Positions 16,795 through 18,923 of a DNA stretch of 64,000 nucleotides are shown here, in pieces. The stretch is from an uncultured Gemmatimonadales bacterium (GTDB lineage: Bacteria; Gemmatimonadota; Gemmatimonadetes; Gemmatimonadales; Gemmatimonadaceae): NCBI GenBank assembly GCA_963707505.1, contig CAVPQB010000005.1, positions 99,753-163,752 on the forward strand, in the 5' to 3' direction. Position 1 is the stretch's first letter; the number at the start of each line of letters is the position of its first letter. The position numbers were made by a program, and so were the translations under genes. The notes beneath the pieces were generated by a model. The model was not told where the DNA came from, did no database searches, and saw nothing but the letters and a program-made list of their open reading frames with translations.

Positions 16795-16824
16795 GAGAAA
16801 TGGGCAGGCGCGGGGGCCTGCCCG
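16795..16824 (-). terminator. Putative intrinsic terminator of the ferritin-like gene
   Basis: GGGCAGGC/GCCTGCCC stem (16802-16823) followed on minus strand by ATTTCTCT. Confidence 0.5.
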
Positions 16825-16841: not shown

Positions 16842-17363
16842 CTAGCGGCTGAGCTCCGCCGTGGCTGTCGCAGCGACGTTGTGATCACCTTGTCGGACCT
16901 GCTCGACGAACAATTGCTGCACGAGTCGGTTCGCGTCGCGATTGTAGGAGTCGTGATCGCGCTCGCCTGTCTCGCCGATATCCGCGAGCCGCGGCAGGCC
17001 CAGCGCGCGGCCGGCCTCCCGGAAAGTCTTGAAGGTATCTTCGGCCTGCCGCGACATGACGATGTCGCCTACCAGGCGCAGGAAGTCGCTCTCGCGGACC
17101 GAGTCAGCCAGGTCGCGGGCGGCATTGGCCGTTGCGCCGAGGGCCCGCTTGAGTACGCCTGCGCTCGGCGCACCGAGCTCATTCTGATAGTCTTCGAGCA
17201 TGCGTTGGTGATCGCGCATGGCGGGTATATAACGCGTGCAGAGATCGCGAAAACGCGGGTCTTCGGCCTGGGATTCGTGGTCCTCCAATCCCTTGAGAAA
17301 GGCGTGATGCTGTGCGGCTGCGTTGTGCACCTGGGATTTGAGAAAGTCGTTGCCTGTATCCAT
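16842..17363 (-). CDS. Hypothetical protein, probable ferritin-like four-helix bundle (DUF892/YciF-like)
   Basis: GGAGGAG RBS before ATG 17363; helical with E/D-H clusters (LEDHE, RDHQRMLE, ERDHD); fold is inferred. Confidence 0.6.
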   Translation of the reverse strand: MDTGNDFLKSQVHNAAAQHHAFLKGLEDHESQAEDPRFRDLCTRYIPAMRDHQRMLEDYQNELGAPSAGVLKRALGATANAARDLADSVRESDFLRLVGDIVMSRQAEDTFKTFREAGRALGLPRLADIGETGERDHDSYNRDANRLVQQLFVEQVRQGDHNVAATATAELSR

Positions 17364-17478: not shown

Positions 17479-17507
17479 TTGCTTTGAAACACGCAAAACA
17501 CTAGGTT
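17479..17507 (+). promoter_or_regulatory. Putative sigma70 promoter of the SWIM-like/Rad52-like operon
   Basis: TTGCTT (17479-84)-17 nt-TAGGTT (17502-07). Confidence 0.6.
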
Positions 17508-17515
17508 TACACATA

Positions 17516-17531
17516 CCGAATAATCACCGAA
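17516..17531 (+). promoter_or_regulatory. Direct-repeat operator CCGAA-N6-CCGAA (candidate LexA/SOS-type box)
   Basis: CCGAATAATCACCGAA just downstream of the predicted start site; 12/16 identical to the site upstream of mutS2. Confidence 0.55.
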
Positions 17532-17570
17532 AACCGCATCGTAAGTAGTGAATTACCAACGACTTGGCAC

Positions 17571-17903
17571 GTGCCAATAAAACAGGTCAAAGGCCGCGCC
17601 GGGGCTCGGAAAACGCGAAAGGTCCAGATTCCGCAGGTCCCGTCCAGCTACGACGTGGAGCCGCTCAATCCGTGGCTTCAATGTGGGCCGGACACGACGG
17701 TGACAGAGTTGTGGAAGGTGTGGGAGCGGACGGAGAAGGAAGCCACGCTGCACCTGGTGTACTTCGATCGGTACGGTTGGTACTGCGAACACGGAGCTGG
17801 CTGCAAGGCAGTTGCGGAGGTACGGAGGATTGTTCGGACAATGAGCGCGAATGCGCCTAGACCCAGGAGCTCTGGCAAGACCAGGGCGAGGAAACGGAAA
17901 TGA
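17571..17903 (+). CDS. Small basic hypothetical protein with degenerate SWIM-like Cys/His motif
   Basis: HLVYFDRYGWYCEHGAGCKAV; K/R-rich termini; stop overlaps next ATG (ATGA). Confidence 0.7.
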   Translation: MPIKQVKGRAGARKTRKVQIPQVPSSYDVEPLNPWLQCGPDTTVTELWKVWERTEKEATLHLVYFDRYGWYCEHGAGCKAVAEVRRIVRTMSANAPRPRSSGKTRARKRK

Positions 17904-18733
17904 TTGCGAGACAGGAAACATTCAATTCGAAGGACGCCGTATGGTCAGCGCTGGCGGCCCCGGTGCCTGCGGGAACGATCTCGTGGCGCCAGGACGGAAA
18001 GCCGGTAGCTCGTGACGGACGTCACTTCGCGCGCTTCGTGTGTTACATCGAAGCGAACACGGTGCGGGAACGCCTCGACACAGTTGTCCCGGGCGAGTGG
18101 GATCTGACTCTCGAGATGCTGCCGCAGATCCACGGCGCCGAGGTCGATTCGGATTCAGTCTGCGCGTTCAAGGCGCGACTTCAGGTACTCGGCGTGATCC
18201 GCGAGGACGTCGGGACCGGTCGGGACTACAAGCAGGCTGCGACAGATGCGTTCAAGCGCGCAGCGGTGCGGTTCGGAATTGGAAACGAGCTGTACTCGTA
18301 CGAGCAGAACTGGGTCGAGGTCGATGGCGACGGCAAGTATGCCAAGCCAGTGGAAGATCCGGCAACCGCCTACGAGCGCAGGCACGGCGGTAGCGCCGGA
18401 AAGTCGAGCCGGTCCGCGGTTGCGACTGACGACGTGAGCGCGATGAAGGAAGCGAACACGCTGACCGACGTCGATGCGGTGAGCTGCCCCAAGTGCGGCG
18501 GCCGCATGTGGGACAACCGTCTGACCAAGCGGAACCCCAAGGCGCCCGACTACAAGTGCAGAGATCGAAACTGCGACGGGGTCGTGTGGCCGGCGAAAGC
18601 CAGTGGAAGCAACGCGGAGCATGATGGAGCTGACGCCGCAGAAGAAGTGGTCGCCGAGGTGGAGACACCGAAGGCACCTGCGCGGAAGACGCGCGCGGCG
18701 AAGCTGGCGTTGACGGACGAGATTCCGTTCTAA
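17900..18733 (+). CDS. Rad52/Rad22 (DdrA/Sak-like) ssDNA-annealing protein with C-terminal zinc ribbon and SSB-like tail
   Basis: YIEANTVRERLDTVVPGEW, REDVG, KQAATDAFKRAAVRFGIGNELY (Rad52 signature); CPKC...C-x4-C; ends DEIPF. Confidence 0.88.
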   Translation: MIARQETFNSKDAVWSALAAPVPAGTISWRQDGKPVARDGRHFARFVCYIEANTVRERLDTVVPGEWDLTLEMLPQIHGAEVDSDSVCAFKARLQVLGVIREDVGTGRDYKQAATDAFKRAAVRFGIGNELYSYEQNWVEVDGDGKYAKPVEDPATAYERRHGGSAGKSSRSAVATDDVSAMKEANTLTDVDAVSCPKCGGRMWDNRLTKRNPKAPDYKCRDRNCDGVVWPAKASGSNAEHDGADAAEEVVAEVETPKAPARKTRAAKLALTDEIPF

Positions 18734-18756
18734 CTCTGAAGTGAATCTCATGTGAA

Positions 18757-18797
18757 CAAAGAGGGGAAGCGAATCCATGATTCGCTTCCCCTCTTTG
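18757..18797. terminator. Bidirectional terminator hairpin between Rad52-like gene and tRNA-Leu
   Basis: Perfect 19-bp stem CAAAGAGGGGAAGCGAATC-CAT-GATTCGCTTCCCCTCTTTG. Confidence 0.85.
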
Positions 18798-18838: not shown

Positions 18839-18923
18839 TGCTCGGAGCCGGACTCGAACCGGCATGGAATTATGTTCCAAGGGATTTTAAGTCCCTCGCG
18901 TCTACCCATTTCGCCATCCGAGC
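18839..18923 (-). tRNA. tRNA-Leu (anticodon TAA), CCA not encoded
   Basis: Reverse complement GCTCGGATGGCGAAATGGGTAGACGCGAGGGACTTAAAATCCCT...GGTTCGAGTCCGGCTCCGAGCA; long variable arm. Confidence 0.96.

Follow-up and report, generated by a model that had tools for sequence, protein, structure and literature searches.

A chromosomal two-gene unit of an uncultured Gemmatimonadales bacterium is best read, with a probability of roughly 55%, as a conserved unit in which a Rad52 gene taken from a phage has been placed under a LexA-type box, and whose main product would be a damage-induced ring protein that anneals or holds single-stranded DNA (ssDNA) ends. The unit lies in a stretch of 64,000 nucleotides (the window, in whose coordinates all features are given in Table 1). 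From the fold and domain layout of the proteins, their conservation, the synteny of the genes, and the position and company of the box, we infer the following mechanism. LexA would bind the direct repeat that lies over the start site and block transcription; RecA on ssDNA would then promote LexA self-cleavage, and both genes would be induced along with recA, uvrB, ruvB, and dnaE2. The Rad52 domain of the second product, ORF2, would oligomerise, bind ssDNA, and anneal complementary ends without ATP, while its DEIPF tail would dock in the SSB-binding pockets of host repair enzymes and so hand the DNA on, and its zinc ribbon would contribute a DNA or protein contact. The first product, ORF1, would be a co-induced basic zinc protein, likely DNA-binding, that need not act as a stoichiometric partner and has a role of its own.

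Table 1. Features of the unit and its immediate flanks, in window coordinates
Feature	Coordinates	Strand	Basis
Divergent gene, weakly DUF4142-like, conserved flank	16842..17363	-	Pfam E 0.016, below cut-off
σ70-type promoter: -35 TTGCTT (17479-17484), 17-nt spacer, -10 TAGGTT (17502-17507)	17479..17507	+	Sequence, conserved geometry
Direct repeat CCGAA-N6-CCGAA covering the predicted transcription start, likely the LexA (SOS) operator	17516..17531	+	Conservation, shared box
ORF1, 110 aa, predicted zinc-binding, SWIM-like layout without the SWIM motif	17571..17903	+	Conservation, model
ORF2, 277 aa, Rad52/Rad22-family protein	17900..18733	+	Pfam, PHROG, Foldseek
Rad52 N-terminal domain of ORF2 (aa 16-140), predicted ssDNA-binding and ring-forming	17945..18319	+	Pfam, model, Foldseek
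C4 zinc ribbon of ORF2 (C196, C199, C220, C225), between two variable linkers	18485..18574	+	Conservation
C-terminal DEIPF of ORF2, SSB-tail-like acidic tip	18716..18730	+	Conservation, likeness to host SSB
Perfect 19-bp inverted repeat (hairpin)	18757..18797		Fold z -7.4, 0/200 shuffles
tRNA-Leu(TAA), convergent flank outside the operon	18839..18923	-	41 nt beyond the hairpin

The initial annotation of this DNA had described a promoter, a repeat, two ORFs joined by an ATGA overlap, and a 19-bp hairpin, and all of these were found in place; it had overlooked the tRNA-Leu(TAA), the zinc ribbon, and the SSB-like tail. A consensus scan, for which TTGCTT-17-TAGGTT is too weak a promoter, called no site. 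The promoter is accepted here because its geometry is conserved: at 29 of the 30 loci that bear the repeat, a TTG-type -35 and a TAnnnT -10 are separated by 16-18 nt and end 4-8 nt ahead of the repeat, and the equivalent promoters at these loci are mostly of the TTGACA type. The repeat thus overlaps the promoter in the manner of a repressor site, at a position past the -10 element where a bound repressor would block the start. The ATGA overlap between ORF1 and ORF2 is a variable, non-fixed feature of the pair, since it is present at 10 of 32 loci and the remainder have gaps of 3-94 nt. The hairpin, which has a short U tract, was not called as a terminator in the consensus scan; in two genus-mates its arms have changed with pairing preserved, and strong hairpins unrelated to it trail many of the homologues. 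It is likely to be the terminator of the operon, and it possibly serves the convergent tRNA as well.

Within the flanks examined, the tRNA-Leu is found downstream at 14 of 33 loci (±1.5 kb), and the divergent DUF4142-like gene, whose product is helical, is found upstream at 13 of 33 (1.5 kb). The long ORFs of the 64-kb window look by eye like housekeeping genes. Seven expression runs gave shares of 0.06-0.11, and the four of these seven that were examined yielded contigs of relatives only; one contig from an RNA run reaches across the promoter region shared with the divergent gene, which indicates that DNA may be present in that run.

The repeat (half-sites at 17516-17520 and 17527-17531) is the element that would tie the unit to the damage response. 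Exact copies stand ahead of the genes at 30 of the 33 loci, while the three loci without one offered only 201-386 nt of upstream DNA, and its chance occurrence is about 0.001 per 300 nt. (It should be noted that the 6-nt spacer is not over-represented in a genome-wide count, with 22 hits versus 8-39 for spacers of 3-11 nt, and the evidence for the box is therefore its position and conservation rather than its number.) When a matrix derived from 27 loci in other genera was scanned over the genome that carries the unit, the repeat at 17516-17531 was the second-best site, and seven of the 12 best sites precede gyrB, gyrA, ruvB, uvrB, recA, lexA, and a dnaE2-type operon. The last of these consists of three genes ending with a DnaE-type polymerase, which we take to be imuA-imuB-dnaE2. 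Two further sites among the top 12 lie ahead of a radical SAM gene and ahead of a divergent pair made up of an HD-domain gene and a gene of unknown function; another two of the 12 do not lie ahead of repair genes. In this genome the box of recA is about 160 nt before the gene.

In this genome and in five of five relatives, a pair of boxes precedes the canonical lexA, and the second lexA paralogue has a box in none of the five. Across the phylum, two exact boxes are present at 16 of 30 lexA loci, divided as 16/16 in families f1, f2, and f4 and 0/14 in families f10-f12, with 0/118 among control windows. In these more distant families, f10-f12, a GCGAA-N6-GCGAA variant is seen before lexA at 6 of 14 loci by matrix and at more by eye (L070-L098). 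The second paralogue of this genome (L043, C3:213112) lies behind a tRNA-synthetase-like gene and has a conserved promoter without a box. In the assembly the canonical lexA (L044, C5:17853) and ssb (L100, C4:1072613) are frameshifted, and both are intact in genus-mates; assembly error is the likely cause, because many genes neighbouring lexA are broken as well.

Taken together, the position, conservation, and company of the repeat make it very likely that CCGAA-N6-CCGAA is the LexA box of these bacteria. It resembles the Alphaproteobacterial LexA box GTTC-N7-GTTC, described in PMC8565304, in being a direct repeat with an 11-bp period; it differs in its half-site, which here is TTCGG (and which before lexA in distant families takes the GCGAA form). 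In the titles and abstract openings covered, no account of a Gemmatimonadota LexA box or of this operon was found. By analogy with the established pathway, it can be held with good confidence that LexA represses the unit and that damage, through activation of RecA and self-cleavage of LexA, would induce it alongside the SOS set. The inactivation of LexA requires RecA. Consequently, the proposal that the unit is possibly RecA-independent does not hold as regards induction, which would need RecA if the box is a LexA operator, although the annealing chemistry itself may be RecA-independent. Likewise, the repeat is not an operator of the unit's own, as had been proposed, but a common box that also precedes recA, lexA, uvrB, ruvB, gyrA, gyrB, and the dnaE2-type operon; the same sharing with recA, lexA, uvrB, and ruvB lends support, at the level of sequence, to the suggestion that the unit is damage-inducible.

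The assignment of ORF2 to the Rad52 family is borne out by both profile and structure searches. The protein matches PF04098 over aa 16-140 with an E value of 2.2e-11 and 44.3 bits, above the curated cut-off of 20.3, and it matches phrog_1097 of PHROG with E 4e-16. Its model has a pLDDT of 67-89 across aa 11-160 and contains the β-hairpin and the β-β-β-α arrangement of the Rad52 fold. Foldseek returned 17 matches at E≤0.001, and the 15 listed are all human RAD52 or yeast Mgm101, with human RAD52 at the top (E 2e-6); PDB sequence searches with ORF1 and ORF2 gave nothing useful. As judged from the model, aa 1-160 thus find their best structural matches in eukaryotic RAD52 and Mgm101, whereas the C-terminal half differs and identity is about 15-25%.

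What follows the Rad52 domain is a zinc ribbon and an acidic end. Among 46 aligned rows C196, C220, and C225 of the ribbon are invariant and C199 is present in at least 90%; in Pfam the ribbon gave only sub-threshold zinc-ribbon matches, and an Atlas search with it gave only scores below 0.9. An acidic-[ILV]PF end is present in 114 of the 120 homologues listed. Like the tip of SSB, the end of ORF2 has acidic residues, a terminal [ILV]PF, and a flexible linker before it (pLDDT <50), and the host SSB terminates in DDDLPF in four of four relatives. E. coli SSB is described as ending in DDDIPF and such tails as binding maintenance proteins, RecO and PriA among them (PMC5928155), and the C-termini of annealases are described as binding partners and SSB (PMC11611040). 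By analogy, the DEIPF tail may act like SSB tails and bind the partners of SSB. On the other hand, the tail may have been left over from a phage, because an AAA_24 protein and a phage homologue end in it as well. This AAA_24 protein, which is encoded by a genus-mate (L014:1426-2490, minus strand) and is presumably Sak4, shares the ribbon and terminates in GEIPF, and its architecture indicates that the C-terminal module moves between recombinase-like proteins. A tandem ribbon that stands alone and ends in DDDDIPF was also seen (L008:1486-1986). Such tails or ribbons may already appear in the 2002 classification of annealase families; in the literature covered, no account was found of a LexA-boxed chromosomal Rad52 protein with a ribbon and an SSB-like tail.

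The nearest precedent for a chromosomal Rad52-family protein of this kind is DdrA of Deinococcus, from which chromosomal Rad52-family genes in the bacterial damage response are mainly known, under another regulator. In PMC6300522 DdrA is described as a damage-induced protein that protects 3' ends and does not anneal. It is further described there as the product of a chromosomal gene in a damage regulon with recA, gyrA/B, ruvB, and uvrB, and as patchy among relatives, and in these latter respects it resembles the unit described here. It differs in its lack of annealing and in its control, which is exerted by the repressor DdrO at a 17-bp palindrome and lifted by IrrE, whereas here a direct repeat shared with lexA is the likely operator; the conserved site is accordingly not the palindromic RDRM operator of the DdrA/RDR regulon. 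The passages of PMC6300522 consulted mention neither a ribbon nor an SSB-like tail on DdrA.

It follows from the DdrA precedent that annealing may be the wrong activity for ORF2. Under the same regulation, ORF2 could be a DdrA-like cap that protects 3' ssDNA ends for RecA-dependent repair without annealing them, and co-regulation with recA would fit a protein that feeds RecA. This explanation is possible but well short of probable. The closest relatives found for ORF2 are phage proteins in recombination and replication modules, and the characterised kin of such phage proteins are annealases. Annealing is ranked ahead of capping because the nearest relatives are of this type, and ORF2 is likely to be a phage-derived, DdrA-like annealing or end-protecting gene that was recruited into the SOS regulon.

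The phage connection is seen at several levels. ORF2 shares its fold with the phage Sak/Rad52-22/Erf-like annealases (80α Sak, Foldseek E 0.01-0.02) and belongs with them in PHROG 1097. Three viral contigs encode homologues at 65-67% identity and one encodes a distant homologue. Of the three closer homologues, one carries the ribbon, and genes for a replication initiator and DnaB come after it; the other two lack the ribbon and lie upstream of an HNH-like gene. One phage homologue ends in DLPF. Neither ORF1 nor the box was found near the viral homologues in the available flanks (only 540 nt upstream in one case), and a scan of the viral contigs with one pattern found no ORF1. Unlike the phage annealases, whose genes are described as usually lying beside ssb and replication genes (PMC8093625), ORF2 stands outside any phage setting, behind a host promoter that bears the box and behind ORF1, a cellular gene that was not found in viral contigs. 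The idea that the gene is domesticated is plausible in view of these close homologues in phage replication modules, and the sequence comparisons suggest that it was likely taken from a phage. A quick tree of 39 Rad52 domains (L012 was left out as having no frame, and L015 as a duplicate) did not settle the direction of transfer between phage and host: the phage rows fall in an unresolved fork or are nested on a long branch, and the outgroups are too distant.

Given such relatives, and given that the unit abuts the 3' end of the tRNA-Leu, it has to be considered whether the locus is a decaying prophage remnant, in which a phage recombinase gene has come to lie behind an existing SOS gene with no selected host role. 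Genes for tRNA are typical integration targets, and the distribution of rad52 is patchy with repeated loss (L104 has kept the ribbon and tail only, and in G306 the gene is split). Nevertheless, the hallmarks of an integrated element are lacking. As the initial annotation had stated, no integrase, phage gene, or att repeat was found on the contig or in the window, but close phage homologues (65-67%) do exist. Specifically, the six integrase-family matches of the genome all lie on another contig, no 12-mer of the tRNA-Leu has a second copy in the window, and no phage neighbours were found (by Pfam for four flanking genes and by eye for the rest). A 23-nt inverted likeness to the tRNA at 16797-16819, considered as an att site, belongs to a hairpin that follows the divergent gene, and we regard it as a chance resemblance. 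The GC content of the unit is like that of its surroundings. Moreover, the rad52 gene is intact in the great majority of the 82 genomes that have it, which span 33 genera, with homologues at 55-95% identity and dozens of invariant residues, and one locus that has lost ORF1 (L040) retains the box directly before rad52. A remnant with no selected role is therefore very unlikely.

Genes of the ORF2 type were found in 82 of 301 genomes of the family, which close homologues identify by their source labels as Gemmatimonadaceae, and in 33 of its 77 genera, at a single place per genome save for the one split in two pieces. The Pfam Rad52 model matched in nine of 201 genomes of the phylum and in none of the 96 genomes searched from the sister family. 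That rad52 was not found in 219 of 301 family genomes, nor in 96 of 96 sister-family genomes searched, indicates that it is dispensable. ORF1 lies directly upstream of rad52 in 75 of the 82 genomes. The suggested conservation of the pair is thus upheld within the family; it does not extend to the whole phylum, as the sister family shows. (The pairing tally took 91 of the 150 ORF1 places listed, namely the close clade and two partial hits adjoining rad52; the tallies include three genomes flagged as unpublished, G414, G303, and G460, and each count shifts by at most three on their account.)

Such frequent pairing fits a real partnership as well as it fits shared regulation. ORF1 might be a dedicated zinc subunit on the Rad52 ring, needed for its activity, as Shu2/SWS1 is beside RAD51 paralogues. 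Besides the adjacency in 75 of 82 genomes, the apparently one-sided loss, with rad52 seldom found without ORF1, would fit such a subunit, as would a distant ORF1 paralogue that lies directly behind a second clade of Rad52 genes at three of 13 loci, all in one genus, and an Atlas lead to the SWIM family. The ORF1 family, however, is found in 143 of the 301 genomes versus 82 for rad52, and among 90 genomes with an ORF1 of the close clade, 14 have no rad52 match. Ten of these 14 were examined, and all ten have kept ORF1 intact together with the box and at least one shared flanking gene; nine have no Rad52 sequence at the locus, and the tenth is L104. In at least four genera, then, ORF1 persists where rad52 is missing or no longer intact. 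Conversely, the phage homologues and L040 have rad52 without ORF1. In the genus-mates L101-L103, neither rad52 nor tRNA-Leu lies between ORF1 and a GH125-like gene. The ORF1-only loci and L040 argue that the pair is usual but not obligatory and that rad52 is more often the part that is lost. ORF1 is probably not the dedicated partner of the Rad52 protein that it had been supposed to be, and a subunit required on the ring is unlikely, also because its SWIM motif is wanting.

ORF1 consists of a 60-aa core between K/R-rich ends of low confidence, and it has no match in Pfam, PHROG, or NCBIfam. A profile search gave 241 clusters at E≤0.001, and conservation was taken from 148 of the 150 listed. 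In these 148 distant homologues among the matches listed, H61, C72, H74, and C78 never vary and C38 occurs in 98%; the N-terminal tail is between 0 and 270 aa long, K+R making up 28% of it and D+E 3%. The invariant residues H61/C72/H74/C78 would bind zinc, and the basic tails may bind DNA. The model (pLDDT 72) has β strands followed by a helix; Foldseek gave nothing at E≤0.001, and the best VIA match (Z 5.6, rmsd 5.5 over 77 residues) is too weak to be meaningful.

The SWIM motif is described as CxC..CxHxxA (PMC6316741), and the earlier naming of ORF1 as a SWIM-like protein fails at both of its pairs if membership is meant. In place of CxC, ORF1 has C72-x-H74 in 148 of 148 homologues; in place of CxHxxA, it has C78-x-A80 (A in 97%) with no His. 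None of 47 ORF1-family members matches the Pfam SWIM model PF04434 at E≤5, and the sole SWIM signal is the Atlas lead, which has rank 13, a score of 0.90, 168/256 features, and a cluster that is 19% SWIM. ORF1 does resemble Shu2/SWS1 in being a small Cys/His protein, with strands and then a helix, that adjoins a recombination gene; it differs in its signature, H-x10-C-x-H-x3-C-x-A versus CxC..CxHxxA, and SWS1 partners RAD51 paralogues rather than Rad52. A distant branch of ORF1 (L111-L120, e.g., L111:3010-3321, minus strand) has Q-[LFIM]-[DE]-[LFI]-[FW] just ahead of the core at ten of ten loci; this motif is close to the clamp-binding consensus QL[S/D]LF given in bioRxiv 10.64898/2026.05.27.728225. 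The same branch lacks C38, has CxxH in place of CxH, and is without the box at nine of ten loci.

A more far-reaching version of the preferred reading would join these pieces into a LexA-controlled, eukaryote-like Rad52 pathway, in which a ring with a crown of SSB-type tails acts as both annealase and hub and is served by the twice-paired zinc proteins, the other branch of which, with its sliding-clamp motif, would link annealing to the replication fork. This we regard as speculative. The system is not a new repair chemistry. Bacterial Rad52 proteins are described as numerous (PMC11783212), and soil metagenomes as containing long DdrA-like clusters (PMC10140301). If the preferred reading of a phage-derived Rad52 gene under LexA control is true, Rad52 would have been recruited independently into the LexA regulon, twice in one family of common soil bacteria, and the architecture predicts that the SSB-like tail binds the host's SSB partners. 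The box, the tail, and the four zinc ligands provide testable targets; ORF2 offers itself as an annealase candidate for recombineering in this phylum, for which tools are scarce; and an unnamed, predicted family of SOS-boxed zinc proteins, that of ORF1, is brought to light.

Other boxed genes were seen in the course of this work. The second Rad52 clade (L155-L167) is distant, is present in 11 of 301 family genomes, and has neither the ribbon nor the acidic tail; the box is found at eight of its 13 loci, and several genomes hold two boxed Rad52 genes. A 205-aa gene (L048:3302-3916; C6:491301-491918 in the genome that carries the unit) was considered as a second annealase, which we had assumed it to resemble, and was set aside, having matched neither a Pfam family nor, in a profile comparison, the Rad52 alignment; its only PHROG matches, 11717 and 23738, are both of unknown function. 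This gene, which is divergent from an HD-domain gene, has the best-scoring box of the genome; its homologues are present in 25 of 101 family genomes, and the box lies upstream at 20 of 20 loci.
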